From: an uncultured Gammaproteobacteria bacterium
GTDB lineage: Bacteria; Patescibacteriota; Patescibacteriia; Magasanikbacterales; UBA922
Direction: 5' to 3'
Length of the DNA stretch: 64,000 nt
Assembly (NCBI GenBank): GCA_964344965.1
Contig: CAYFPJ010000001.1
Span: forward strand, 22,771-86,770
Shown here: positions 5,109 through 56,374 of the stretch, one piece after another
Layout of the letters: every line of letters begins with the position of its first letter
How positions within the stretch are numbered: the stretch's first letter is position 1
The notes under the pieces: model-generated
The model's input: only the letters and a program-made list of their open reading frames with translations
What the model was told of the DNA's origin: nothing
Database searches by the model: none
Translations under genes and position numbers: made by a program

Positions 5109-5768
5109 ATGAAAAAAATAATTATATTAATGGGGGTCCCTGGTAGTGGTAAAGGAACTCAAGCCAAAAAATTAGTCGAACGACATGGCTATGGTCATAT
5201 CTCTACTGGAGATCTGCTTCGTGCTCTTGCAGTAGATGAAAATGCTGATCCAGAAGACAAGCAAATGCTAGTTGACATGAAGGCTGGTAAGCTTGTTGCC
5301 GACAAATTGATTTACAAACTTGCTTTTGCAGAAATAGAAAAATATCTGTCAAAAGACACTGGAGTGGTGTTGGATGGAGCGATTCGAAATGTTGAGCAGG
5401 CAAAAAAGTATCAAGAATTTTTTGTTGAAAATAACTTGGCAGAAGAGGTGGTAGTAGTTGAAGTTTCCCTCAGTGATGAGACTAGCTTTCTACGCCTATC
5501 AAGACGCAAAGTTTGTTCTGGTTGTGGGGATATCATCCCGTACTCCAAAGAAAATGAATCAAAAAAAGAATGTGAAAAGTGCGGTGGGGAGCTGGTAGTA
5601 AGAGAAGACGACAACGAAGAGGTGATCAGAAAAAGAATCGAGGAACAAGGTAATGAAAAGCTACAACCAATTTTGGATTTTTATCGTGATCTCGGAATAT
5701 TACAATCTGTAGATGGTGAGATGAGTATTAATGAGGTAGATGGGGAGATTATCAAAATACTAGAGTAG
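5109..5768 (+). CDS. adk: adenylate kinase with zinc-binding lid
   Basis: P-loop GVPGSGKGTQ and a CSGCGD...CEKCGGEL Cys4 lid. The start is chosen at MKKIIILMG; the track ORF extends upstream in-frame across the hairpin. Confidence 0.9.
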   Translation: MKKIIILMGVPGSGKGTQAKKLVERHGYGHISTGDLLRALAVDENADPEDKQMLVDMKAGKLVADKLIYKLAFAEIEKYLSKDTGVVLDGAIRNVEQAKKYQEFFVENNLAEEVVVVEVSLSDETSFLRLSRRKVCSGCGDIIPYSKENESKKECEKCGGELVVREDDNEEVIRKRIEEQGNEKLQPILDFYRDLGILQSVDGEMSINEVDGEIIKILE

Positions 5769-5776
5769 AACGAAAG

Positions 5777-5846
5777 GATTCCTGCCGAAAGGCAGGTCAG
5801 TCCGGACAGCGTTCGTAGACCGCCTTTCGGTGGCAATCCTAAGTTT
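5777..5846. repeat. about 68-bp structured element, copy 1: outer stem aggatt/aatcct enclosing two GNRA-loop hairpins (cctgcc-gaaa-ggcagg and ccgcc-tttc-ggtgg)
   Basis: Seen directly. The reverse-complement copy is at 12187-12256. Confidence 0.7.
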
Positions 5847-5872: not shown

Positions 5873-5892
5873 CCTGCCTGCCGGCAGGCAGG
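5873..5892. repeat. 20-bp perfect GC palindrome CCTGCCTGCCGGCAGGCAGG (copy 1 of 7)
   Basis: Perfect palindrome in an AT-rich adk-map intergenic region. Related copies are at 8087, 30188, 31548 (split), 36298 and 52490. Confidence 0.8.
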
Positions 5893-8053: not shown

Positions 8054-8086
8054 ATTTCAAATCACAGTTCCCCTCCTTAGAAAGCC

Positions 8087-8105
8087 ATGCCTGCCGGCAG
8101 GCAGG
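8087..8105. repeat. GC palindrome family member (gcctgccggcaggcagg)
   Basis: Seen directly. It is adjacent to an imperfect long hairpin (8104-8185) with an ACGAATATTCGT apex, and to a ccccctttccaaggggg hairpin. Confidence 0.7.
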
Positions 8106-8220
8106 GAGGGGTTAGAGGTGGTTGATTCATAGTACGAATATTCGTGGTGCTATCATCAACCCCCTCTAACTCCCCCTTTCCAAGGGGGAGGATTTACTTG
8201 GTAGATATGCCCTAATTTAT

Positions 8221-12186: not shown

Positions 12187-12256
12187 GGATTACCACCGAA
12201 AGGCGGTACCACGAAGATTGTGTGTGCTAGCCTGCCTTTCGGCAGGAATCCTAACG
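12187..12256. repeat. about 68-bp double-GNRA-hairpin element, copy 2 (reverse complement orientation of 5777-5846)
   Basis: The reverse complement reproduces aggattcctgccgaaaggcagg...accgcctttcggtgg..aatcc, with a different 22-nt centre. Confidence 0.7.
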
Positions 12257-12359
12257 TTTTGGTTGTTTTTTTGTACTTTTCGTAATTTTGCACATCTTAG
12301 ATATTTGCCAAAACTATATTATTTTGCTAAGATATTACTGTTAATTTAGCAAAATATTT

Positions 12360-14171
12360 ATGGAATATCGTACTCACAATTGTGGACAATTAAACACAAA
12401 ACAAGCTGGACAAGAAGTAATTCTTTCTGGTTGGGTACACCGTCGTCGAGACCTTGGTGGTCTTATTTTTATTGACCTCCGAGATCGTTATGGGATTACT
12501 CAGGTAGTTTTTCATCCTGATCAGTTGGCTGATTTTGCTGTAGCAGAAAGTCTGAAATACGAATACGTGGTCAGAGTAAAAGGTAAAATAGAAAACAGAA
12601 AGAAAGAAAATGTTAATAAAGATCTGAAGACTGGTGAGATTGAAGTGATGGCTACAGAACTGAGTGTCCTCAGTACAGCGAAGGCTATGCCTTTTGAGAT
12701 TTTTGAAACAAACAAAGGTGAAGAAGACGAAGAGCTGAGATTGAAATATCGTTTTCTTGAATTGCGTCGAGAAAGATTGCGTGAAAATATTATCTTCCGC
12801 GCCAAGATGGTCTCCCACATTCGTAAATATATGGACGAGCACGACTTTGTCCACATTGATACGCCAATCTTGACTGTTAGTTCACCAGAAGGGGCACGAG
12901 ATTTCCTCGTCCCATCTAGACTACATCCTGGTAAATTTTATGCCCTACCGCAAGCTCCGCAGCAGTACAAGCAGCTTTTGATGGTGGCTGGCTTTGATCG
13001 TTATTATCAGATTGCTCCTTGCATGCGTGATGAAGACCCGAGAGCCGACCGTTCTCCGGGAGAATTTTACCAGCTGGATTGTGAGACTAGTTTCATGAGT
13101 CAAGACGAGTTTTTTGAACTCATGGAACCCTTGTTTATCGAATTGACAGAAAAAGTTGCAGGTAAAAAAGTAAAATCAAAACCACTACCAAGGATTCCAT
13201 TCAAAGAGTGTATGGAGACTTATGGTAGTGACCGACCAGACTTGCGCTATGATCTTGAAATTCAAGAAGTAACAGAATGGGCCAAAGGAACAGACTTCAA
13301 AGTTTTCAACAGTGCAGAGCATGTCCGTGTTTTGGTGATCCCTGGAGGTGATAAATTTACTCGCAAAGAGATTGACAAAGAGTTTACAGATGTGGCCAAG
13401 AGAGCGCACGCCAAAGGACTGGCTTGGATGAAATATATAGATGGCAAGTTTGAAGGAGGGGTGAGTAAATTTTTTGATGATGATCAGCTAGAAAAGTTGT
13501 TGAATTTACTTAAGGCGAGACCCCCCTCCGACTCCCCCCTACAAGGGGGGAGGGAATCGGGTGGACTTGGGGATGCTATTCTTTTTTTCTCGGCTGATGA
13601 TTGGGAAGTGAGTTGTACAGCTCTTGGGGCGGTGAGGCATATGGCAGGAGAGAAGCTTGATCTGGCAGATCCAAATGAGGTTGCTTGGGCTTGGATAGTG
13701 GATTTTCCATTTTATGAGAAAGATGCGGAGACTGGCAAGATAGATTTTTCACACAATCCATTCTCAATGCCTCAAGGTGGTATGGAGACTCTAGAAAACA
13801 CAGATCCACTAGATATCAAGGCTTTTCAGTATGACATCATTGCTAATGGTCTTGAACTTAGCTCTGGCGGAGTACGAAACAAAGATCCAGAAATAATGTA
13901 CAAAGCATTTGAAATAGCTGGCTATACCAAGGAAGACGTGGATGCCAAATTTGGTCACATGATCAGAGCTTTTGAATTTGGTGCTCCTCCTCATTGTGGA
14001 TTTGCTCCTGGTATCGAGAGGATGGCTATGCTCCTCTTGGGAGAGAAAAATATTCGTAGCGTAGTTCCATTCCCCAAGAATCAAAAAGCAGAAGAACCAA
14101 TGGTGGGTAGTCCTGCTGAGGCCGATGAAGGGCAGTTGAAAGAATTAGGATTGGAAATAAAAAATATATGA
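12360..14171 (+). CDS. aspS: aspartyl-tRNA synthetase (bacterial type with GAD insertion)
   Basis: 603 aa. Motifs QQYKQLLMVAGFDRYYQIAPCMRDED, GGVRN, GFAPGIERM. Contains a GC-rich in-frame insert at about 13505-13562. Confidence 0.92.
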   Translation: MEYRTHNCGQLNTKQAGQEVILSGWVHRRRDLGGLIFIDLRDRYGITQVVFHPDQLADFAVAESLKYEYVVRVKGKIENRKKENVNKDLKTGEIEVMATELSVLSTAKAMPFEIFETNKGEEDEELRLKYRFLELRRERLRENIIFRAKMVSHIRKYMDEHDFVHIDTPILTVSSPEGARDFLVPSRLHPGKFYALPQAPQQYKQLLMVAGFDRYYQIAPCMRDEDPRADRSPGEFYQLDCETSFMSQDEFFELMEPLFIELTEKVAGKKVKSKPLPRIPFKECMETYGSDRPDLRYDLEIQEVTEWAKGTDFKVFNSAEHVRVLVIPGGDKFTRKEIDKEFTDVAKRAHAKGLAWMKYIDGKFEGGVSKFFDDDQLEKLLNLLKARPPSDSPLQGGRESGGLGDAILFFSADDWEVSCTALGAVRHMAGEKLDLADPNEVAWAWIVDFPFYEKDAETGKIDFSHNPFSMPQGGMETLENTDPLDIKAFQYDIIANGLELSSGGVRNKDPEIMYKAFEIAGYTKEDVDAKFGHMIRAFEFGAPPHCGFAPGIERMAMLLLGEKNIRSVVPFPKNQKAEEPMVGSPAEADEGQLKELGLEIKNI

Positions 14172-19394: not shown

Positions 19395-19473
19395 TGCCCG
19401 AGGAGAGAATCGAACTCTCACTCCCGAAGGAACACGATTTTGAGTCCCGCCTTCGCTAAAGCTACGGCGGGCA
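19395..19473 (-). tRNA. degenerate tRNA-like sequence (CUCAAAA loop, long variable arm, canonical T-arm) lacking a proper D-arm and acceptor pairing; possible pseudo-tRNA or integration scar
   Basis: Reverse complement: GCCCGCC...GGCGGGACTCAAAATCGTGTTCCTTCGGGAGTGAGAGTTCGATTCTCTCCTCGGGCA. The T-arm is perfect. The 5' GCCCGCC pairs locally with GGCGGGC instead of with the 3' end. Confidence 0.35.
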
Positions 19474-20457: not shown

Positions 20458-20604
20458 TTAAATCTTTAAGCGGTTTTATTCCTCGATGCTTGCATCGAAA
20501 AAGTGAAAACTAACATTGGTTGAAATAAGATTTTCTGCCAATACCCCGCAGCTTGCTGCGGGGATGGCCCGATGAAGTCTTACTTAAACCAAATTTACTT
20601 TTAT
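20458..20604. repeat. 147-bp element, copy A (exact duplicate of 27204-27350), ending 22 nt upstream of the parB ATG
   Basis: Identical sequence, read directly. Contains hairpins cgatg-cttg-catcg and ccccgcag-cttg-ctgcgggg (CUUG tetraloops). Confidence 0.85.
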
Positions 20605-20625
20605 TGTTAATTGTCAATTGTCATT

Positions 20626-27089: not shown

Positions 27090-27203
27090 TATATATCGCA
27101 CCATATTGAGAGAAAGTAAATTTTAGATATATTTATATATCTCTTACGGAATATAGGATTAACTAACTAAATATATATTTTACATTAACTTTACTAAATA
27201 ATT

Positions 27204-27350
27204 TAAATCTTTAAGCGGTTTTATTCCTCGATGCTTGCATCGAAAAAGTGAAAACTAACATTGGTTGAAATAAGATTTTCTGCCAATACCCCGCAGCTTG
27301 CTGCGGGGATGGCCCGATGAAGTCTTACTTAAACCAAATTTACTTTTATT
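27204..27350. repeat. 147-bp element, copy B, ending 4 nt upstream of the ATG at 27354
   Basis: Exact duplicate of 20458-20604. Confidence 0.85.
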
Positions 27351-27353
27351 TAT

Positions 27354-27713
27354 ATGAAAAGAATGGACGCAGGGAAACCAAGAAAAAACGTTGATGCTCA
27401 AGAGTTGTCACATGGACATGTAAAAAGTAAAATTTTGGGTTTGACAAAATTTATAACTTCCAGTAGGGAAGGTCATATATTTCCGCAAGTAGATCAATCG
27501 CAATTGGTGCTTAACACTTTAGAAGAAGGTCGCGTCTTGGAAGATGCTGATTTAAGCTCAGTTGATTTGATATCATTTGTAGGTTCTATTGAAGAGGAGT
27601 TTGGTATTAATTTTGTTGGTCAGGAAATACACGGCTTACAACAATCAACTATAGATAAGATTGCTGAAAAAGTAATGGAAAAAATTAAAAATAAACCTAC
27701 TATGGATAGCTAG
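27354..27713 (+). CDS. acyl-carrier-protein-like protein (PP-binding domain with N-terminal extension)
   Basis: DADLSSVDLISFVGSIEEEFGINF...STIDKIAEKV aligns well with ACP [24 protein letters not shown]...helix 4. Confidence 0.5.
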   Translation: MKRMDAGKPRKNVDAQELSHGHVKSKILGLTKFITSSREGHIFPQVDQSQLVLNTLEEGRVLEDADLSSVDLISFVGSIEEEFGINFVGQEIHGLQQSTIDKIAEKVMEKIKNKPTMDS

Positions 27714-30187: not shown

Positions 30188-30207
30188 CCTGCCTGCCGGC
30201 AGGCAGG
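30188..30207. repeat. 20-bp GC palindrome CCTGCCTGCCGGCAGGCAGG
   Basis: Perfect copy, followed by ACGAAT-word-rich AT sequence. Confidence 0.8.
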
Positions 30208-30373: not shown

Positions 30374-31450
30374 TTACCTTGCTAACACATAATTCATATT
30401 CCCCACATTCCGTACTTTACCCTTCATCTCCATCATGGTGAGAGTGGCGTTTACTTCTGGACTAGAAAGCCCAGATTGCTTGGTGAGATGATCGACATGA
30501 GCTGGTTCTCGCGATAGATGTTCAAGTAGCTTTGCCTCAGTAGGGGAGTCGGGCAATATTTCTTTATTTGTAACATACTTCTCAATGTCCTGCAAATTGA
30601 GAGCCTCCAGTATGTCTGTGGCAGTAGTGACCACCTTCGCTCCCATTTTGATAAGATTGTTGGGGCCTGCTGCTGTAGGTGAGGTGATGTTTTGGGGGAT
30701 GGCAAATACTTCTCGCCCATCATTGAGGGCACATTCAGCTGTGATGAGAGCTCCAGATTTTTCTGGGGCTTCTATGACTAGGGTTCCGAGAGACATGCCA
30801 GCAATGATGCGGTTTCTTCTTGGGAAAGTGAATTTACTAGGTAAAGCTCCTGGGGGATATTCTGAGATTATAGCTCCGCCTGCTTCTATTATTTTTTCTG
30901 ATAAACTACGATGGGCAGCTGGATATATGTGGGATTTGTTTATCCCTGACCCCAGAACTGCCACTGTATTTCCGTGGTTGCTTATAGCCGTGCTGTGAGC
31001 AATACCATCTATCCCAAAGGCCAATCCGCTAATAATATTTATTCCTTGGCTAGCTAGTTGACTGACAATTTCTTCTGTCACTTGTTTGCCATAGGGTGTG
31101 TACTTTCTAGTACCTACCACACCTAGATTGAAGCCTTTTTTTACCTCACCACGGACAAATAAACAAAATGGAGGGTCATATATTTCTTTCAATAATTCCG
31201 GATATTCTTCATTGTCTTTGAAGACACATTTGATTTGTTCTTTTTCTAATATTTTATTTATTTTTTCTTCGTTTATCTTTTTTCGCCAATTTACAAATTC
31301 TGTAATTATTTCTTCTTTCCACTTACTTTTTTTTAATTCTTTAGCACTAGCTTGCCACACTTCCTCCAGAGAAGAAAAAACTGCCAGTAGCTGCTGATAG
31401 CGATTGACAGTTATTTTTGGAAAAAATGATAGGAGAATTCTTTTGTCCAT
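30374..31450 (-). CDS. dprA: DNA processing protein DprA (Smf)
   Basis: Rossmann-like DprA core (GVVGTRKYTPYGKQV...SGLAFGIDGIAHSTA...AVLGSGI). 358 aa. Confidence 0.88.
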   Translation of the reverse strand: MDKRILLSFFPKITVNRYQQLLAVFSSLEEVWQASAKELKKSKWKEEIITEFVNWRKKINEEKINKILEKEQIKCVFKDNEEYPELLKEIYDPPFCLFVRGEVKKGFNLGVVGTRKYTPYGKQVTEEIVSQLASQGINIISGLAFGIDGIAHSTAISNHGNTVAVLGSGINKSHIYPAAHRSLSEKIIEAGGAIISEYPPGALPSKFTFPRRNRIIAGMSLGTLVIEAPEKSGALITAECALNDGREVFAIPQNITSPTAAGPNNLIKMGAKVVTTATDILEALNLQDIEKYVTNKEILPDSPTEAKLLEHLSREPAHVDHLTKQSGLSSPEVNATLTMMEMKGKVRNVGNMNYVLAR

Positions 31451-31485: not shown

Positions 31486-31645
31486 GGATATTTAATCCCG
31501 ACCTCGTTCCTCGGTACGGGACGAGGGACTGGTTTAACCTGCCTGCCGGTCTTCGACTATGAAGCTCAGACTGAATAGCAGGCAGGCCCCCCGAGACTTG
31601 CTTCGGAAAAAAGGGTCCAGGGGCTTGTCTTAGGGTTCATACCTT
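31486..31645. repeat. about 150-bp structured repeat, copy 1; its internal GC palindrome is split by a 28-nt insert
   Basis: ttaatcccgacctcgttcctcggtacgggacgag...ggtttaacctgcctgccgg[tcttcgactatgaagctcagactgaata]gcaggcagg...gggtccag...catacc..ttgatt. Shared with 36248-36400. Confidence 0.75.
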
Positions 31646-31662
31646 TGATTGGATTTATAAAT

Positions 31663-32205
31663 TTAAAGTAATTTATTTATCTCATCGACACTTTGTTCTA
31701 GTATTTTATTTAGTTCTCTTTTTTCGAGCAGACCAAATTTTCCCAAAACAAATCTAGAGGTGTTTTCCATTTTTTTTTCGTTATTACTAGCTATGCCAAT
31801 GCGGATGCGAGTAAAGTCTTTGGTGCCAAGATGATTAATAATTGATCTGATGCCATTATGCCCAGCATGGCCACGGTCACTTTGCACTTTTATTTCTCCA
31901 AGTTTCAGATCTTTGTCGTCGTGAGCCACCACAATATCATCAATGCCAATGTTGTAGAAGTTGGTAATAAGCCAGACTGATTGGCCAGAGTGATTCATAT
32001 AGGTCATTGGTTTGGCAAGAATAATTTTCTCTCCATTTAGGCTTGTTTCATAGATCTCTGCATTGAATTTTTTGCTTAGCTTCCATATCTCTTTAGATCC
32101 TGGTTCCAGCTTTTTTTTCAATGCATCGAGCACCATAAAACCCACGTTATGACGGGTACGTGCGTATTGTCTACCTGGATTGCCAAGTCCGATGATGAGT
32201 TTCAT
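31663..32205 (-). CDS. pth: peptidyl-tRNA hydrolase
   Basis: MKLIIGLGNPGRQYARTRHNVGF and the HDDKDL / GHNG catalytic motifs. Confidence 0.9.
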   Translation of the reverse strand: MKLIIGLGNPGRQYARTRHNVGFMVLDALKKKLEPGSKEIWKLSKKFNAEIYETSLNGEKIILAKPMTYMNHSGQSVWLITNFYNIGIDDIVVAHDDKDLKLGEIKVQSDRGHAGHNGIRSIINHLGTKDFTRIRIGIASNNEKKMENTSRFVLGKFGLLEKRELNKILEQSVDEINKLL

Positions 32206-32285
32206 AAGGCTAGTTCATAGCAAATAGTTCTTGGCCAATATTCTTGTCATCTATGAACTATTGGCTTTGAACTATGAACTGTAAA

Positions 32286-33683
32286 TTATCTTTTCATCTT
32301 AGTTAATTTAATTATAATCGGTGTACCATAAAAATCAAATCTTTCTCGTAGCTTATTTTCTAGATAATTGATGTATGATCTGTGTACTGAGGTGCGATAT
32401 TTTACAAAGATTTCAAATACTGGCGGGGCTGTATCTATTTGTCTTATACCCATCAATTTTGGGTGCCTAGTCCCTTTTCCTCTAGAGGGGCGATGTTCTT
32501 TTGTTACTTGCTCCAAAAAGTTTTCTAGCACCTTTACAGGTATTTTGGTTTTTCTAGAGTTCCACACTCGCATAATTTCTGGTAGTATGCTGTGAACATG
32601 TAGTCCAGTTTTACCGCTCACCAAGAGCATAGGGGCGAATTTTAGATGTGGAAAATATGAATAGACCATTCTCTTTACGTACTTTTGATTTTGTTCACTA
32701 TTGTCTTCTGCAAGGTCCCATTTGTTAACAAGTATAATGACACTTCTGCCATGTCTTTCTAATAATCCTCCAAGCTGCATATCTTGTGATGATATAGATT
32801 CCTTTCCGTCAATCACAAATAGGACAACTTCTGACTCACTGGCGGCGTCAATACTTTTGAAAATTCCCTCTCTTTCCAATTTTCCTTTTACTTTGGATTT
32901 ACGTCTTATACCGGCAGTGTCAATAAAATTTATTTTTTGGTTTATTTTTTTTGAACCAATTTTGTGTTCATATATTACTAATGTGTCATGTGGTTCACGA
33001 GTTGTATGAGCCATGTCGCTGACTATCACTTTTTCTTGACCAATTAGCTTGTTGAATAATGATGATTTGCCTACATTTGGTTTACCTATCAGGCTTACAT
33101 TTATGACAGAGTCATCCAAATTGTAACTTTTTTTGGGACGTCTTTTGGATTTATTTAATAATTTGTAAATAAGATCCAACAAGTCGCCAGTATTGGCACC
33201 GCTGGTGGCTGAGATAGCAAACGGTTCGCCAAGACCAAGAGAAAACCACTCTTTTTCATAAAGGTTTTTTTGATACTTTTTGCTATCCACCTTATTGGCA
33301 ATTAAGATTACTGGTTTTTCGATGATTCTTCTGAGACGCCTGGCTAGATCTTTTTCTTGGGGGAGTACTCCTGTTTGTGCATCAGTCATAAACAATATTA
33401 TGTCAGCCTCCTTCATTGCTTTTTTTGACTGCTTCAAAATATCTTCTTCTAGAGGAACACCTTCTTCAAATCTAAGACCTCCTGTGTCTACAAGACGAAT
33501 ATATTTGCCACGCCATATCACCACCCCCTCATTGTTGGTCCTCGTTGTGCCCGGCACATTGGAAACAATTGCTTTTTGCTCTTCTGTGAGGCGATTAAAT
33601 AGGGTAGATTTACCGACATTTACTCTACCTACTAAGGCCACCACTGGCAAATTATCTATACTTCTTTTTGTGTTTTTTGACAT
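32286..33683 (-). CDS. der: ribosome-associated GTPase Der (EngA), tandem GTPase domains + KH-like domain
   Basis: Two G1 loops (GRVNVGKST, GKPNVGKSS), two DTAG/DTGG motifs, C-terminal KH. 465 aa. Confidence 0.9.
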   Translation of the reverse strand: MSKNTKRSIDNLPVVALVGRVNVGKSTLFNRLTEEQKAIVSNVPGTTRTNNEGVVIWRGKYIRLVDTGGLRFEEGVPLEEDILKQSKKAMKEADIILFMTDAQTGVLPQEKDLARRLRRIIEKPVILIANKVDSKKYQKNLYEKEWFSLGLGEPFAISATSGANTGDLLDLIYKLLNKSKRRPKKSYNLDDSVINVSLIGKPNVGKSSLFNKLIGQEKVIVSDMAHTTREPHDTLVIYEHKIGSKKINQKINFIDTAGIRRKSKVKGKLEREGIFKSIDAASESEVVLFVIDGKESISSQDMQLGGLLERHGRSVIILVNKWDLAEDNSEQNQKYVKRMVYSYFPHLKFAPMLLVSGKTGLHVHSILPEIMRVWNSRKTKIPVKVLENFLEQVTKEHRPSRGKGTRHPKLMGIRQIDTAPPVFEIFVKYRTSVHRSYINYLENKLRERFDFYGTPIIIKLTKMKR

Positions 33684-33716
33684 AATGTTTATTTTAGTAA
33701 CTAGTAACTAGAAATT

Positions 33717-35162
33717 TTATAGTGAATCATAGTCAAAGTCTTCTCCCAAGATTATCAGTATGTCTGATCCAGGGGCAAAGCTTTCTGTGCTGGGGAGATT
33801 TTCTTTGACAGGAATATCTAGTATTTCTTTCAGGGCTGGTGTAATATCTTTTTTCCCCTTATTGCTAACTTGGTATATACCACTTTCCAGTATTGGTCTT
33901 TCTGATGTGTTGCCTACTTTTGTGATAAGAAAATTATTTTTTTCTAATTCTTTTTTGGTCCGAGCTGCGAGACCAGCTTGCCATGTGCCATTTTGGATTT
34001 CTACATTTGCCTGACTGACAGTTGGTGTTTCTTGTTTGGGGGTATTGTCTTTTATTTTTACTGGGTTTTTTTGATCAAAAATCATCTCTATCATTTCACT
34101 TATTTCTTTAAAATTTCCAGAAGATGGCTCCAGAATGAAAGCTCCTTCTAGGCTGCGGGCATTTTTTAGGTATCCGTCAACACTATTGTCAAGCACCACT
34201 GTATTTATATTGTCGGTGTCTAATGTCTTACTTAATTTCAACATGGCAATAATATCTGAAAATTCCATGTTGGTGGTTATGTGCTTGTCTAAGGTTTTTA
34301 TAATATTGTGGATACGAATTGGATTGGCAAGTGTCTCAAAAGATATAACTTTTTCTTTTAGGGCTAGGATCATTTTTTGTTGCCTTTTTGCTCTTGCGAA
34401 GTCGGAGCCTTCTCCGTTATTGCCATGTCTTGATCTGGCGTACTGAAGAGCCTCTTCTCCATTCATATTGGTTATCCCTTTTTCGAAGTGGACAGTTTGA
34501 TATTCATGGTTGTCTGCTGGATATTCTAGATCTGTGAATGTCCGTTCTACATTTATTTTTATGCCACCTATCTCTTCTATCACATCTTTTACAGCCTGGA
34601 AGTCTACTCTTATGTAATAATGAATGTCTATATCGAACGTGTCGGAGATAACTTCTGTTGCTAATTTTGCTCCACTATTTTCTTTTTTTGCTTCACCTAT
34701 AGCGTTGGCACTGTTTATCTTTCTCCAGCCATACCCTGGAATTTTTACACCAAGATCACGAGGAATCGAGACCATCGATACTTGGTTGGTGGAAGGTTTG
34801 ATACTAGCAATGATGACGGTATCAGTCAAGAAGGGTCCGTCATGCCCAAGACCTCCCATGCCAAGAAGAAGGACATTGATACGGTCGTCTCTCTGCCCTT
34901 CTAATGTTATGTCTTTGCTGAATACGAAGTTCTTTATTCTTTTCAATAGACTGGCAGGTTTTTTTGGTTCCAGTGTAACCGGATCGTAAGCTTCTGGGTC
35001 GTTTGGTATGTTTTGTTGGATCATGCTTTTTGCTCCATATCCGCCAACCAAGACAACAGCAATAATTATGAAATATAAAAAAAAACGTGGTTTTTTATTC
35101 CGGTTTTTTATTCTTTTTTCTCTAGTATTTTCTTCTAAGAAATTTGTTTTCCTATTTTCCAT
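33717..35162 (-). CDS. LytR-CpsA-Psr (LCP) family cell-envelope phosphotransferase
   Basis: N-terminal TM, then LCP core INVLLLGMGG...DTVIIASI...SIPRDL. Confidence 0.85.
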   Translation of the reverse strand: MENRKTNFLEENTREKRIKNRNKKPRFFLYFIIIAVVLVGGYGAKSMIQQNIPNDPEAYDPVTLEPKKPASLLKRIKNFVFSKDITLEGQRDDRINVLLLGMGGLGHDGPFLTDTVIIASIKPSTNQVSMVSIPRDLGVKIPGYGWRKINSANAIGEAKKENSGAKLATEVISDTFDIDIHYYIRVDFQAVKDVIEEIGGIKINVERTFTDLEYPADNHEYQTVHFEKGITNMNGEEALQYARSRHGNNGEGSDFARAKRQQKMILALKEKVISFETLANPIRIHNIIKTLDKHITTNMEFSDIIAMLKLSKTLDTDNINTVVLDNSVDGYLKNARSLEGAFILEPSSGNFKEISEMIEMIFDQKNPVKIKDNTPKQETPTVSQANVEIQNGTWQAGLAARTKKELEKNNFLITKVGNTSERPILESGIYQVSNKGKKDITPALKEILDIPVKENLPSTESFAPGSDILIILGEDFDYDSL

Positions 35163-35316
35163 AATGGACCCTAGTATACGTGATTTTTTTATTTTTTACA
35201 ATCGATCTCTCTTTTTCTATTTTTAATCTTGTCTTGCTCAAAATGTCTTGCTCAAAATATTAGCTTTGTGCTATACTTAGTTTAAATTTGAACTCATATC
35301 AAGTTTTTCAAACCCA

Positions 35317-35399
35317 CCAAAATATTAACTTATTTTTTAGCCCCAAAACTCGTCTTTGGACTCACACAATTGTGTCTAAAAAATAAGTTAATATTTTGG
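35317..35399. promoter_or_regulatory. 24-bp perfect inverted repeat (ccaaaatattaacttattttttag / ctaaaaaataagttaatattttgg) with a nested 12-bp palindrome ACACAATTGTGT, in a divergent intergenic region
   Basis: Arms are exact reverse complements. The inner palindrome is at 35363-35374. Confidence 0.5.
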
Positions 35400-35462
35400 C
35401 TCTATTTTGGTCAAAAATAGGTAAAACTTAATACAAGTTCTTTAAGGAGTATTTTTCTGTTT

Positions 35463-35966
35463 ATGCCAGAAGCATTGTCAGAACAAACAACAATTGGAGA
35501 TATAAAGCACCGATGGACTATCCAAGAGTATGATAGCCATGATCGAGGTACTTTATGGCACATCCTCATGATCACTTTGGGGATAATATTTGTGGTGTAT
35601 GCCTTATGGACTGGTAATTTTTTGTTTGCCTTGATAGTGGTACTATTTTCAATAGTAATTTTTTTACAGTCTAATCAAGAAGCCTTACAAGTCAATTTCG
35701 CAATTACAGATCTTGGTATAGTGATTGGTCGTAGATTTTATGCTTATTCTGAATTTGAAAGTTTTTATGTGATTTACCAGCCACCGGAAGTAAAGACTCT
35801 GTTTCTAGAGACCAGAAGCACCTTCCGTCCATCGATTCGTATCCCTCTACTTGACGAAGATCCTGTGCAGGTCAGGAAAGATCTTTCTATTTTTTTGGAA
35901 GAGGATCTCGAAAAGGAAGATGAGCCACTTAGTGACAGAGCTGCGAGGAGATGGAAGATACATTAG
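35463..35966 (+). CDS. hypothetical membrane protein (2 TM, 167 aa)
   Basis: ORF with two hydrophobic helices. No motif. Confidence 0.45.
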   Translation: MPEALSEQTTIGDIKHRWTIQEYDSHDRGTLWHILMITLGIIFVVYALWTGNFLFALIVVLFSIVIFLQSNQEALQVNFAITDLGIVIGRRFYAYSEFESFYVIYQPPEVKTLFLETRSTFRPSIRIPLLDEDPVQVRKDLSIFLEEDLEKEDEPLSDRAARRWKIH

Positions 35967-36138
35967 TGAAATTTTCAATTTTTAATTTTCAATTTTTAAA
36001 ATTGTCTTATTGACAGTTTTATTTTTTTACGATATATTGTTGACGTCAAATGCCCCTGTTGCCCCTGTAGTTTCCCGACTTTGTCGGGATCAGCCTTTGG
36101 CTGATAATGGATAGTCCCGATATATAGATTTTGGTTCA

Positions 36139-36210
36139 GCTCTCGTCGTTCAACGGATAGGACACCAGTTTGCGGAACTGGCAATGCAGGTTCGATTCCT
36201 GCCGAGAGCA
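36139..36210 (+). tRNA. tRNA with anticodon GCG (reads as tRNA-Arg)
   Basis: GCTCTCG-TC-GTTC-AACGGATA-GGAC-A-CCAGT-TTGCGGA-ACTGG-CAAT-GCAGG-TTCGATT-CCTGC-CGAGAGC-A. All four stems pair. U33 and G37 are present. Confidence 0.75.
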
Positions 36211-36247
36211 CTATTTTTGAAGGTTTTGTACTACGTACGTTTCCTAC

Positions 36248-36400
36248 GATTTTAATCCCGACCTCGTTCCTCGGTACGGGACGAGAGATCGGTTTAACCT
36301 GCCTGCCGGCAGGCAGGTTCCCCGGGGCTTGCCCCGGAAAAATGGGTCCAGTCCCGATAAAATCGGGACTGGGGCTCATACCATTGATTTAAACTTTTTG
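36248..36400. repeat. about 150-bp structured repeat, copy 2 (intact GC palindrome at 36298-36317), 38 nt downstream of the tRNA
   Basis: Aligns with 31486-31645. Contains hairpins ccgggg-cttg-ccccgg and agtcccgat-aaaa-tcgggact. Confidence 0.75.
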
Positions 36401-36437: not shown

Positions 36438-37061
36438 ATGCAGAAGATAGAAAAAAATACTCCAAAAACACAAATTATTTTTTCAGTTATTATATTGTTG
36501 TTTGCCAATATACTTGTTATTGGTTTAGCCTTATTTTATTACTGGTCGCTTCATACATTTTTTTTGGTATTTTGGGCCCAAAGTTTGATTATTGGTTTTT
36601 TCTATATTTTGAAAATACTTGATCTAAAAAATTTTTCTACCGAGGGAGTAAAGGTCAATGGAAAATTGGTAAAACCAACAAAAAAGTTTAAAAAAGAAAG
36701 TGCTTGGTTTTTCTTACTCCATTATGGTTTTGTGCATTTTTGTATTTATTTTGCTATTGGTGATATGGCTGGGGAGGTTGATTGGAAAATGGTAATAATC
36801 GGGTCAATTATCTTCTTTGTAAATCACTGTTTGTCTTTTATCATAAATAGAAAACAAGATCGTCTACGGGTTTTTCATATTGGTAAAATTATGATTTTCC
36901 CATATTTGCGTATTTTTCCAATGATTATATTAATTTGGTTAGCATTGAACTTTGCTTCAGACCAATCAACACTTTTATTTTTTTTGGCATTTAAAATTGT
37001 GGCTGATATGACTATGCATGTTGTGGAGCATATTTGGCATGGTGAGACATCATTTTTGTAG
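36438..37061 (+). CDS. hypothetical polytopic membrane protein (207 aa)
   Basis: 5-6 hydrophobic segments. No motif. Confidence 0.45.
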   Translation: MQKIEKNTPKTQIIFSVIILLFANILVIGLALFYYWSLHTFFLVFWAQSLIIGFFYILKILDLKNFSTEGVKVNGKLVKPTKKFKKESAWFFLLHYGFVHFCIYFAIGDMAGEVDWKMVIIGSIIFFVNHCLSFIINRKQDRLRVFHIGKIMIFPYLRIFPMIILIWLALNFASDQSTLLFFLAFKIVADMTMHVVEHIWHGETSFL

Positions 37062-47450: not shown

Positions 47451-49766
47451 TTAATTTTTTGTTTTTTTGGAGAGGAGTGTTTGTCTTTCTCTTTCTTTTG
47501 ATTCTATTTCTTTGCTTACTTTTTTTGATGCACTCCTGTTATCTTGTTCATTTATAAATTCAAAAATAACCAGAAGTATGTTGACGCCAGGAATCATCTT
47601 TAGCAAAAATGTCACACAACTTCCACTTTTGTAGGGTTTACCTTGGGTCAGTTTCATCAGTGCTACTATGGGCATTCCAATCCCTGAAAGTGTAAGTAAA
47701 TGTACAAAACACCCGGTAAGCTCATCTTCATTATCTATTTGATTGTCTATTTTCTTTTTTTGTTTTTTTAGTTTGCTAATGTCCTTATCCAGGTCCTGTG
47801 CTTTTTTATTATTTTTATTTTTTTGCTCTCTTTTTTTGTTATCCAACTCATTTTTTCTGTCTTTCTCTGTTTCGGATCTTTCCTTATTTTTTTCTTTATC
47901 CTTATCTTTTCCTTTTCCTTCTCCTTCTCCTTCTTGTTTATCTTTTTTTTCTGAATCATCTCCCTCATTTTTACTCTCATCTTCAGCCTCTTCTTCCTTT
48001 TCTTCTTCCTTTTTTTCGTCTATGGCAGAATCTTTTTTTCCGTCCAGCGCGTCAGCTGCTTGCTGCCACTTGTCAGCATTCCAAAAACTTGGCATACCAC
48101 CGGGCATTTTTTGCTTACTGTCTTCTTCTGGATCACTGCCATCTTCTGTATCACCATCTTGTTTGTCATCATTTTTTTCTTTGTCATCTTTTACATACTC
48201 TTCACCACCTGGCGCACTCTTTGCAGATTCTTCGTCAGCTTTTTTCTCTTTTTCAGATGGTTCATCACTTTCATCATCTCCGTCATCGTCCTCTTCATCT
48301 TCTTCTGCGTCTTCTGGTGAATCAGTATCATCGTCTGCATTCTCACCATCTACTGGCTGATCTTCTCCCTCGTCGTCATCATCATCAAAAAAATCATCCA
48401 TGCCTGGCACACCTTGTGCCATTCCTGCCAGTCCGTGTCCACCATCTGGTGCATCTTCATCAGTTGTATCTTTTTCATCGTCAGCTTTATCTTCGTCATC
48501 ACCTGCATCTTTTTTTTCATCAGGCCTTTTTTCACCTTCATCGGGTGTTGGTTTTTCGTCTGATGGTAGCAGATCACCACTCGGCGTATCATCAAGGCTG
48601 TCAGCTGCTTGTTGCCACTGATCATCACCCCACATGCTTGCCGGTCCTTTTGGGTTACTTGGTTTTTTTGGTTCTTCGCTTTTTTCATCTCCGCTATCAT
48701 CACCATCATTTTTACCACCTGCATCTTTATCTTTGTCACCACCTTCTTCCTCTTTTGGTTTGTCTGTTTCTGTACCATCTTTTTTTTCGTCTTCTGGTTT
48801 TTTTTGATCTTCCTTTTGCGGTGTATTGTCAGACTTGTTATTGGATTTATCGGAACCTTCTTCTACTTTTTTACCGCCATTATCTGATGCCGGATCACCA
48901 CTCGGCGTATCATCAAGGCTGTCAGCTGCTTGTTGCCACTGATCATCACCCCACATGCTTGCCGGTCCTTTTGGTCTACCTGGTTTTTCTTGGTTTTCAT
49001 CTTTTTTATTTTTATTCTCATCCTCATTTTCACCATCTCCACCTTCTTTCGATTTCTCTGGCTCTGCTTCATCTTTTGGTTCTCCTGCTTTTGTGCCATC
49101 TTTGTCGCCATCTGACTTTTCTGGATTTCCTTTTTCTTTTGGTGCGTCATCAGATTTACCATCTGACTCATTGGATTTGTTGTCGGAACCTTCTTCATTT
49201 TTTTTGTTATCATCGTTTGTTGGCGCATCAAGACTATCTGCAGCTTGTTGCCACTTGTCTGCACCCCAAAAGCTTGGCAATCCGCCTGGCATGACTGTTC
49301 TTGGCTTGCTTGGTTCAGTCGAAGCTTGTCCAGATTCTTGCTTCGGTACCTCAGCTTTTTCAGAGGCGGGTTTAGTTTGTGCTTTTTCTGGTTTTTTGGG
49401 AGTTTGTTTTTTGGGAGTAGGCTGTCGTCCTCTTTCTTGGTTTTCCTTCCTTTTTGCTTTCTTTGCCTTATCCCTCTTTTTTTTTGCTCGTTTGTTTGCT
49501 GCCTTTCTTTTCTTTTTTCTTTCTTGCGCCCTCCTTTGTCCTGGAGTTAGTTGATTGCTATCTCTGGCAGAATTTTTCAGATCCTCTCTGTTTGATGATG
49601 CTCCCCGCGTTCTATTGGTAGCTGATCGCGAACTAGGCTCTCTTCTTTTTGCTTCTTTCTTATTGCCTTGACGACGTGGAGCATCCTGATCATCACCCAC
49701 AAGAGGGGCTGGCACCTTTCTGGCAGCATTTGATTTTCTGTTTTGCTGATCAGATTGATCTGCCAT
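47451..49766 (-). CDS. 771-aa intrinsically disordered poly-acidic/Lys-rich repeat protein with four (M/F)WG(D/A)D(Q/K)WQQAADSLD motifs and a C-terminal hydrophobic anchor
   Basis: Repeats PASMWGDDQWQQAADSLDDTPSGD (x2, encoded by an exact 83-bp direct repeat), PSFWGADKWQQAADSLDAPTNDD, PSFWNADKWQQAADALDGKKD. Basic N-terminus. Hydrophobic GMPIVALMKL...VNILLVIFEF near the C-terminus. Confidence 0.6.
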   Translation of the reverse strand: MADQSDQQNRKSNAARKVPAPLVGDDQDAPRRQGNKKEAKRREPSSRSATNRTRGASSNREDLKNSARDSNQLTPGQRRAQERKKKRKAANKRAKKKRDKAKKAKRKENQERGRQPTPKKQTPKKPEKAQTKPASEKAEVPKQESGQASTEPSKPRTVMPGGLPSFWGADKWQQAADSLDAPTNDDNKKNEEGSDNKSNESDGKSDDAPKEKGNPEKSDGDKDGTKAGEPKDEAEPEKSKEGGDGENEDENKNKKDENQEKPGRPKGPASMWGDDQWQQAADSLDDTPSGDPASDNGGKKVEEGSDKSNNKSDNTPQKEDQKKPEDEKKDGTETDKPKEEEGGDKDKDAGGKNDGDDSGDEKSEEPKKPSNPKGPASMWGDDQWQQAADSLDDTPSGDLLPSDEKPTPDEGEKRPDEKKDAGDDEDKADDEKDTTDEDAPDGGHGLAGMAQGVPGMDDFFDDDDDEGEDQPVDGENADDDTDSPEDAEEDEEDDDGDDESDEPSEKEKKADEESAKSAPGGEEYVKDDKEKNDDKQDGDTEDGSDPEEDSKQKMPGGMPSFWNADKWQQAADALDGKKDSAIDEKKEEEKEEEAEDESKNEGDDSEKKDKQEGEGEGKGKDKDKEKNKERSETEKDRKNELDNKKREQKNKNNKKAQDLDKDISKLKKQKKKIDNQIDNEDELTGCFVHLLTLSGIGMPIVALMKLTQGKPYKSGSCVTFLLKMIPGVNILLVIFEFINEQDNRSASKKVSKEIESKERERQTLLSKKTKN

Positions 49767-52461: not shown

Positions 52462-52602
52462 AACATACGAATTGCGAATTGTACGCCGTGCCTGCCGGCA
52501 GGCAGGAATGTTCGAATACTATTTCCAGAGTTTTATTTACAAAATGATAGATAGTAGTGTAACCGGTATTCGTACATTAGAAATATTCGTAATTCGTATG
52601 TT
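52462..52602. mobile_element. MITE-like element: terminal inverted repeats AACATACGAATTGCGAAT / ATTCGTAATTCGTATGTT enclosing a GC palindrome (52490-52506)
   Basis: TIRs read directly. The same 18-mer TIR is found at 56255-56374. Confidence 0.55.
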
Positions 52603-56254: not shown

Positions 56255-56374
56255 AACATACGAATTACGAATATTTCGAATATACGAATACCTGTAACAT
56301 TGCTCTTTGTAATATTGTAAATAAAACTATGGAAACAATATTCGAACATTCGTACAATTCGTAATTCGTATGTT
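56255..56374. mobile_element. MITE-like element with TIRs AACATACGAATTACGAAT / ATTCGTAATTCGTATGTT (second copy of the family)
   Basis: 18-mer right TIR identical to that at 52585-52602. About 120 bp. Confidence 0.55.

Follow-up and report, generated by a model that had tools for sequence, protein, structure and literature searches.

Two copies of a hairpin-rich, non-coding repeat lie 4.76 kb apart in a 64,000-nt stretch of a Patescibacteria genome (NCBI GenBank assembly GCA_964344965.1, contig CAYFPJ010000001.1, positions 22,771 to 86,770 of the forward strand; hereafter the window, meaning the whole stretch analysed), and a third copy occurs on a metagenomic contig from a different organism. 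The repeat is best explained, with a probability of about 0.6, as a small non-autonomous insertion element of ~100-160 bp, forming a new family that resembles miniature inverted-repeat transposable elements (MITEs), repetitive extragenic palindromes (REPs) or BOX elements and that is so far confined to Candidatus Magasanikbacteria (Patescibacteria, or Candidate Phyla Radiation, CPR). Its copies occupy unrelated loci, one of them in the second organism, its presence among close relatives is sporadic, its ends are better conserved than its interior, and other repeats are nested within it. The variable interior is a landing pad for still smaller hairpin repeats.

Both window copies had been noticed in an earlier reading of the letters without database searches (the sequence-only reading), as structured repeats of ~150 bp; they are present at about the positions then given, with limits refined as in Table 1. 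Repeat search and pairwise alignment delimit a 59-nt 5′ block, 31491-31549 versus 36251-36309, with 95% identity and three mismatches. The hairpin within this block, CCTCGTTCC-TCGGTAC-GGGACGAGG (hairpin 1), has exactly two matches in the window at ≤3 mismatches, and none of 100 shuffles gave one. On its 3′ side follow, in order, GGTTTAA, the palindrome CCTGCCTGCCGGCAGGCAGG, a CTTG-loop hairpin, an A run, GGGTCCAG, a variable segment and the tail GGG(G)YTCATACCWTTGATT. All the shared blocks listed in the sequence-only reading were recovered from both copies, namely the hairpin, GGTTTAACC with the palindrome, the GC hairpin with its CTTG loop, GGGTCCAG and the CATACCNTTGATT end; the 18-nt tail at the 3′ end and the G(CUUG)C hairpin are likewise common to the two. 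Because the 95%-identical block and the downstream blocks are shared, the similarity extends beyond the palindrome, to which it had been thought possibly limited.

With the third copy, on a contig designated L007, copy lengths range from 111 to 160 nt and no open reading frame (ORF) is conserved across the copies. The constant 5′ end consists of (T)TTAATCCCGA, hairpin 1 and GGTWTAA, and the constant 3′ tail of GGGGYTYATACCWTTG(ATT). A search for terminal inverted repeats found only AATC/GATT pairs between the element ends (4 bp, up to about 7 with a gap). Two other identities were considered and rejected: a small conserved peptide, every frame of which is broken by indels, and a template/variable repeat pair of a diversity-generating retroelement, given that the differences comprise indels and mixed substitutions with no specificity for adenines, both copies are intergenic and the neighbourhood holds no reverse transcriptase.

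The L007 copy (5233-5343), the one locus found in the JGI metagenomes, shows that the repeat is not restricted to the two copies of the window, as the sequence-only reading had allowed. L007 positions 5229-5266 match 31489-31526 with 97% identity over 38 nt, the two organisms share an identical 32-nt core of the 5′ block, including the loop, and the tail is similar (GGGGTTTATACCTTTGATTTAA); the palindrome is lacking and the interior cannot be aligned with that of the window copies. The source names of its protein homologues place the L007 organism in Magasanikbacteria too, but it is distinct from that of the window (GC 35% versus 39%), and the sole protein-level similarity between the two sequences is that of AAA/Clp ATPases (~50%), which are not necessarily orthologues. 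For the window itself, the nearest Pth homologues that carry an organism name are mostly from Candidatus Magasanikbacteria, and a protein identical to its Pth occurs in metagenome project PRJEB17505 and in an NCBI assembly. A protein search with a spurious ORF overlapping copy 2, intended to reveal further copies, returned no candidates, and DprA and the last window ORF, used as keys for more copies or variants, returned no record.

None of the three orthologous sites in the nearest relatives found carries the element. One relative, contig L013, whose Pth is 76% identical, has retained the gene order Mur ligase, Vut_1, DprA, Pth, Der, LytR, 167-aa protein, tRNA-Arg and RecG, with one additional 228-aa ORF between Der and Pth; the element is absent both between its dprA and pth, where the two flanks align, and downstream of its tRNA-Arg, where a different GC-rich hairpin stretch is found. 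The other, contig L019, has the gene order of L007 and an AAA protein 89% identical to that of L007, and shows a clean 107-nt gap at the position of the L007 element: the empty site reads GTAT^ATCTATTG, and the filled site reads TTTAT, then the element from TTCATCCCGACC to ATACCTTTG, then ATTTAAC. ATTTAA-like sequence stands on both sides of all three copies, and a single ATCTAT at the L019 empty site. Relative to L013, the window lineage carries at least four GC-rich hairpin insertions in ~9 kb.

Nesting is most evident for the 20-nt palindrome CCTGCCTGCCGGCAGGCAGG, a separate dispersed repeat with four free-standing intergenic copies in the window. At ≤3 mismatches, six matches were found in the 64 kb, one of them an overlapping shifted match at 8090, against 0 expected. 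L007 reads GGTATAATTCCCC where copies 1 and 2 carry the palindrome, and copy 2 without exactly these 20 nt becomes GGTTTAATTCCCC; since L007 lacks the palindrome at that exact point and its excision from copy 2 restores an L007-like sequence, the palindrome is a secondary, precise insertion. The insert described for copy 1 is real, yet measures 29 nt (31550-31578) instead of 28 and lies at the exact centre of the palindrome; no second occurrence of it was found in the window. An extra hairpin does exist in copy 2 (TCCCGATAAAATCGGGACT), as a replacement of a 12-nt segment of copy 1 (GGGCTTGTCTTA) and not as a pure insertion. Relatives of its minus-strand form TCCCGATTTTATCGGGA in the TCCCGAY family are TCCCGACTTTGTCGGGA (36073) and TCCCGACTTGGTCGGGA (54615), which differ by a compensated C-G to T-A pair. 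The description of the repeat as modular, hairpin-rich and cassette-like has thus been strengthened, the cassettes being members of other dispersed hairpin families. As a separate observation, the surroundings of one free palindrome (8060-8190) consist of nested palindromes, in which CCCCTCC...GGAGGGG is followed by GGTTAGAGGTGGTTGAT...ATCAACCCCCTCTAAC and by CTCCCCCTTTCCAAGGGGGAG; the last of these hairpins recurs at 13532, inside an aspS-like ORF.

Table 1. Positions in the window of the repeat copies, their parts and associated features.
Feature	Position	Strand	Remarks
Repeat copy 1	31491..31650	+	Between dprA (30374-31450, -) and pth (31663-32205, -), antisense to both genes
Repeat copy 2	36251..36392	+	39 nt downstream of tRNA-Arg, 45 nt upstream of DUF6498 gene (36438-37061)
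Hairpin 1, copy 1	31502..31526	+	9-bp stem, one G.U (G.T) pair on + strand, 7-nt loop TCGGTAC; core of 5′ block; identical in L007
Hairpin 1, copy 2	36262..36286	+	One mismatch, at last base
CTTG-loop hairpin, copy 1	31591..31606	+	CCGAGA-CTTG-CTTCGG; relative to copy 2: one G-C to A-U change, one G.U pair, one A.C mismatch
CTTG-loop hairpin, copy 2	36322..36337	+	CCGGGG-CTTG-CCCCGG, six perfect pairs
Conserved 3′ tail, copy 1	31633..31650	+	GGGTTCATACCTTTGATT
Conserved 3′ tail, copy 2	36371..36392	+	GGGGCTCATACCATTGATTTAA; L007 equivalent GGGGTTTATACCTTTGATTTAA
Palindrome in copy 1, split	31538..31586	+	CCTGCCTGCCGG and CAGGCAGG, separated at the centre by the 29-nt insert 31550-31578
Palindrome in copy 2, intact	36298..36317	+	Removal restores GGTTTAA joined to TTCCCC, matching GGTATAATTCCCC of L007
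Hairpin found only in copy 2	36350..36370	+	AGTCCCGAT-AAA-ATCGGGACT; - strand reads TCCCGATTTTATCGGGA, TCCCGAY hairpin family
Free palindrome	5873..5892	.	Intergenic, adk/map
Free palindrome, one mismatch	8086..8105	.	Inside larger inverted repeat CCCCTCC...GGAGGGG
Free palindrome	30188..30207	.	Between dprA and Vut_1 gene; absent in syntenic L013 region
Free palindrome, one mismatch	52487..52506	.	
tRNA-Arg (anticodon GCG)	36139..36211	+	Copy 2 in its likely transcription unit
Promoter-like site	36010..36038	+	TTGACA-17-TATATT, 11/12 matches, upstream of tRNA-Arg and copy 2

As an insertion element, the repeat would land in AT-rich intergenic DNA at ATTTAA-like sequences and would be moved in trans by an enzyme encoded elsewhere. 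Our preferred candidate is a HUH/Y1 transposase recognising single-stranded hairpins, of the IS200/IS605 or REP-associated tyrosine transposase (RAYT) kind, which would read the 5′ hairpin; such an enzyme is favoured because the element lacks terminal inverted repeats, has a conserved subterminal hairpin and carries inserts at hairpin centres. We infer this step from analogy and from a faint Y1_Tnp match on the contig of a relative. The history of the window copies may have begun with acquisition of the element, followed by insertion of the palindrome at TAA^TT, copying of the element to a second site 4.76 kb away, insertion of 29 nt into the palindrome of copy 1 and, finally, placement of the TCCCGAY hairpin in copy 2. 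Those copies that lie in tRNA units are probably co-transcribed as stable stem-loops, which would be a consequence and not the purpose of the element. The contig with the Y1_Tnp match (P0004, ERZ1426829; a Magasanikbacteria relative with a Pth 65% identical) carries, between radA and recG, the 179-aa gene that produces it; the match is of the IS200/RAYT type, and the gene is a possible candidate for the mobilising enzyme of hairpin repeats in the lineage.

Several results weigh against the interpretation as an insertion element. Neither an integrase nor a transposase was found in the 64-kb window, and genome, metagenome and plasmid searches did not find a full-length parent element. The known copies total three: the exact 20-mer of the hairpin had no match in 185,579 species-representative genomes, a relaxed loop-plus-tail pattern had five in the same set, all due to chance and devoid of the hairpin, viral contigs, GenBank phages and PLSDB plasmids gave nothing relevant, and an unfiltered covariance-model search for the 5′ block, covering the window, L007, L013-L016 and L019-L022 (~166 kb of Magasanikbacteria DNA), found no further or diverged copies. 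Between dprA and pth, the window and L013 differ by a replacement and not by a clean insertion, and with n = 3 the ATTTAA-like flanks are not separable, as a target-site duplication, from the AT-rich background. The 3′ end lacks the conserved hairpin that would be expected of an IS200/IS605-type element, and hairpin 1 is only marginally stable as single-stranded DNA, at -6.9 kcal/mol and no better than shuffles. The G.U pairs, the G(CUUG)C loops and the slightly better folds of the plus-strand RNA fit a role at the RNA level at least as well as one at the DNA level.

The alternative that survives best, although we consider it unlikely, would make the repeat a gene for a structured small RNA, or an RNA module linked to tRNA operons, read from the plus strand, with a functional 5′ hairpin and 3′ tail (for example as a protein-binding or processing signal), which would have spread by horizontal transfer or duplication through host benefit. 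Likely tRNA transcription units contain two of the three copies, both in sense: copy 2, after tRNA-Arg and its promoter-like site (Table 1), and the L007 copy, which lies 33 nt downstream of a promoter-like site with 10/12 matches and 61 nt upstream of a tRNA-Ser. The predicted RNAs of all three copies fold well beyond shuffles (copy 1, z = -3.4; copy 2, z = -5.8 to -6.2; L007, z = -2.4), the G.U pairs of hairpin 1 and of the GGGTCC/GGG(G)YTC stem exist on the plus strand only, the G(CUUG)C tetraloops are stable, one G-C to A-U change between copies is compensatory, and the identical 5′ core of the two organisms would suit a conserved RNA as well. Against these points stands, most weightily, the absence of the element from all three orthologous loci of the closest relatives. 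No Rfam family accounts for it either: in scans of the window, both its copies and the L007 copy, only the two tRNAs of the window passed the gathering score, and E-value scans of the three copies gave chance-level matches far below gathering or nothing. The covariation term of the alignment fold is unfavourable (+1.79), in a test whose power is low because only three sequences enter it; the only variation in the 9-bp core stem is a closing pair that is broken in copy 2. On the strand of copy 1, which runs antisense to pth-dprA, there is no promoter-like site, no plus-strand intrinsic terminator was found after copy 1 or copy 2, and the interior is replaced wholesale between the organisms. The small-RNA identity put forward in the sequence-only reading is consequently not supported. 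A single globally folded RNA was also rejected: one-sided changes in both window copies disrupt the strong outer stem of L007 (GGTATAA/TTTATACC), and each copy forms a series of independent hairpins with no single conserved architecture.

The tRNA next to copy 2 was confirmed as tRNA-Arg(GCG), one nucleotide longer than first reported and 39 instead of 38 nt from the repeat. The repeat contains no tRNA sequence, and adjacency to a tRNA, seen in two of the three copies, may reflect only the tolerance of tRNA flanks to insertion.

Exchange between the copies is suggested by contig L003 (ENA ERZ930066, run ERR2281805, 1436 nt), which joins pth, the 3′ portion of copy 1 (29-nt insert included), a 5′ block of the copy-2 type and tRNA-Arg, with the crossover inside 19 nt common to both copies there. 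A circle, or a tandem duplication, of the intervening 4.76 kb should produce this junction; alternatively, gene conversion could have turned copy 1 into the copy-2 type, with the assembler then misled across the lengthened stretch of identity. The two copies appear to recombine whichever explanation holds. The arrangement of the window is confirmed by four other contigs, and contigs L001, L002, L005 and L006 all end inside repeats.

Such recombination or gene conversion, in place of transposition, is the means of duplication under a second alternative, which we judge quite improbable: that the repeats are host cis-acting elements such as 3′ or 5′ stabilisers of mRNA or tRNA precursors, insulators or terminator-like stem-loops. 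The palindromes and hairpin modules of the window are all intergenic, the stable tetraloop types CUUG and GAAA recur among them, and the minus strand of copy 2 reads as a terminator-like hairpin followed by a T run; the plus strand, however, bears no terminator signature. Recombination within a genome cannot yield the 97%-identical 5′ block of another organism, the precise nesting of one repeat inside another is left unexplained by it, and relatives function without the elements at the same sites. A third alternative, in line with the remnant of an integrative element suggested in the sequence-only reading, takes the copies as attL/attR-like scars left by an element that integrated beside tRNA-Arg. 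This is close to refuted: they are indeed direct repeats, one adjoining a tRNA, and L003 carries the kind of junction expected of a circle or tandem duplication, but the 4.76 kb between them holds core genes (those for Pth, Der, a LytR-family protein, a 167-aa protein and tRNA-Arg) with no integrase or other mobile-element gene, the same gene order is found in L013, which has no repeats, the repeat begins beyond the tRNA without including its 3′ part, and the L007 copy is solitary.

The insertion-element reading invites a broader proposal, which we put forward as speculative and doubtful: Magasanikbacteria, whose genomes measure roughly 1 Mb, might harbour very small hairpin modules that together form an active system. 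The modules seen comprise the 20-nt palindrome, hairpins of the TCCCGAY and TCAGCC types and the ~110-nt element, whose 5′ hairpin is invariant; they would insert with precision into each other and into tRNA genes or next to them, by a single-strand, hairpin-guided mechanism of the kind proposed for the small dispersed repeats (SDRs) of cyanobacteria, the invariant 5′ hairpin serving as the recognition site. If so, the small size of these genomes should make the responsible enzyme findable by simple phylogenetic profiling. As a separate observation on L019 (4320-4525), ~165 nt with the adjacent hairpins TCCGCCAAAGGCGGA and TCAGCCTATGGCTGA lie at tRNA-Ser(TGA), bounded by a ~38-nt duplication that includes the first ~21 nt of the tRNA; the arrangement looks like an insertion into the tRNA gene that regenerated the gene.

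Several known systems offer comparisons. BOX elements of Streptococcus pneumoniae and the enterobacterial repetitive intergenic consensus (ERIC) sequences, or intergenic repeat units (IRUs), of enterobacteria are intergenic, ~100-200 bp long, modular, rich in stem-loops and often co-transcribed with their neighbours, and they are not known to have an associated transposase. The present repeat shares their intergenic size class, their stem-loops and modules that can be present, absent or expanded, but it has no sequence similarity to them, belongs to another phylum, occurs twice in 64 kb and is built of modules that are independent dispersed hairpin families. Like classical MITEs and the Rickettsia palindromic elements, it is small, non-coding, present in more than one copy and scattered in a small reduced genome, with ends better conserved than the interior; unlike them, it has terminal inverted repeats of at most 4-7 nt (AATC/GATT), no overall palindrome and no known parent insertion sequence. 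A classical MITE with terminal inverted repeats was rejected for the lack of such repeats and of any parent insertion sequence in the searches made. The SDRs of Nostoc and other cyanobacteria, reported by Elhai et al. in 2008, are said to be ~20-30 nt long and precisely inserted in other repeats and hairpins, with clean presence/absence contrasts. Precise nesting in repeats and hairpins and presence/absence contrasts between related sequences recur here, in other sequences and another phylum, whereas the nested units documented comprise only one palindrome family and one 29-nt singleton insert.

Palindrome-associated transposable elements (PATEs) derived from IS200/IS605 have no terminal inverted repeats and bear similar subterminal hairpins at both ends, and IS200/IS605 elements make no target-site duplication. 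The repeat resembles PATEs in the lack of terminal inverted repeats, in its conserved, imperfect subterminal hairpin at the left end, in the short conserved sequence abutting that end and in its strand-specific G.T/G.U pairs. It differs in having no matching right-end hairpin (the hairpin nearest the 3′ end is different in each copy), no TnpA (Y1) or TnpB found in the window and a possible target-site duplication (part of the background on the IS200/IS605 family is given in PMC6006769). In the REP/REPIN system, the replicative unit is an inverted REP doublet that forms one long hairpin and is mobilised by RAYT (Y1/HUH) transposases (Bertels & Rainey 2011, PMC3116915, where SDRs are also named). 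The 20-nt palindrome is similarly short, GC-rich, extragenic and dense (six in 64 kb, counting nested and split copies), and insertion within or adjacent to other repeats, the absence of terminal inverted repeats, predicted single-stranded DNA or RNA hairpins and lineage specificity are further likenesses. In contrast to REPINs, the ~150-bp element is a string of different hairpins with no inverted doublet, the palindromes occur as singlets, they are perfect and lack a conserved 5′ tetranucleotide head, and the 64-kb window has no RAYT gene, the only hint of one being the faint Y1_Tnp match in the relative.

On these comparisons, the element is probably one of the small mobile repeats known from intergenic DNA (REP, BOX, ERIC, MITE and SDR-like), a class within which the family itself is new. 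Tiny size, streamlining and a scarcity of mobile DNA are usually ascribed to CPR/Patescibacteria genomes, and the literature searched yielded no account of repeats of the REP, MITE or SDR type in them. The locus shows a Magasanikbacteria lineage gaining hairpin insertions that nest and act as recombination substrates. In practical terms, the repeats break metagenome assemblies and generate spurious gene calls; and should the mobilising enzyme be identified in so small a genome, it might explain the movement of very short palindromic repeats such as REPs and SDRs.

The window is an ordinary bacterial chromosome segment, with genes for ribosomal proteins, SecY, Adk, Map, RecO, AsnS/AspS, ScpAB, ParAB, RelA/SpoT, TopA, a Mur ligase, DprA, Pth, Der, LytR, RecG, RadA, ClpC and PGM. 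Copy 2 sits between tRNA-Arg and the DUF6498-recG pair. Bacterial tRNA-Arg usually has the anticodon ACG; GCG, as in the window, is also found in L013 (1659-1733). Between the promoter-like site and the tRNA (36039-36138) lies a hairpin-rich block of ~86 nt, including TCCCGACTTTGTCGGGA, TCAGCCTTTGGCTGA and AGTCCCGAT, which is absent from the orthologous site of L013. Public assemblies carry a 127-aa gene call across copy 2, tRNA-Arg and the upstream hairpins (35996-36379 on the minus strand; L004, 958-1341; L023, 3034-3417), almost certainly a spurious call caused by the GC-rich repeat.

Other repeats and unusual features were seen elsewhere in the window. Adjoining tRNA-Leu(CAA), a degenerate tRNA-like sequence (19396-19472, minus strand) keeps the T arm, a long variable arm, a CUCAAAA loop and the 3′ strand of the acceptor, its 5′ half being replaced by a hairpin CCCGCC...GGCGGG; ARAGORN makes no call there, and with the Rfam tRNA-Sec model the sequence scores only 17 bits. 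A second repeat, of 148 nt, is present in two 100% identical copies (20458-20605 and 27203-27350) with two G(CTTG)C hairpins and no Rfam match; both lie directly upstream of plus-strand genes (parB at 20611 and a 119-aa ORF at 27354), and the first has GTTAATTG on both flanks, amid heptamer repeats. A composite repeat at 5769-5835 and 12190-12258, in inverted relative orientation, combines the hairpins CCTGCC-GAAA-GGCAGG and CCACC-GAAA-GGCGGT. Inverted repeats of 97 nt (52506-52602 and 56255-56351; 86% complementary and rich in TACGAAT/ATTCGTA) bracket ~3.65 kb with the phosphoglucomutase gene. Finally, a 771-aa ORF without a Pfam match (47451-49766, minus strand) contains tandem repeats with a period of ~315-321 nt (48041-49302) and probably reflects a repetitive surface protein.

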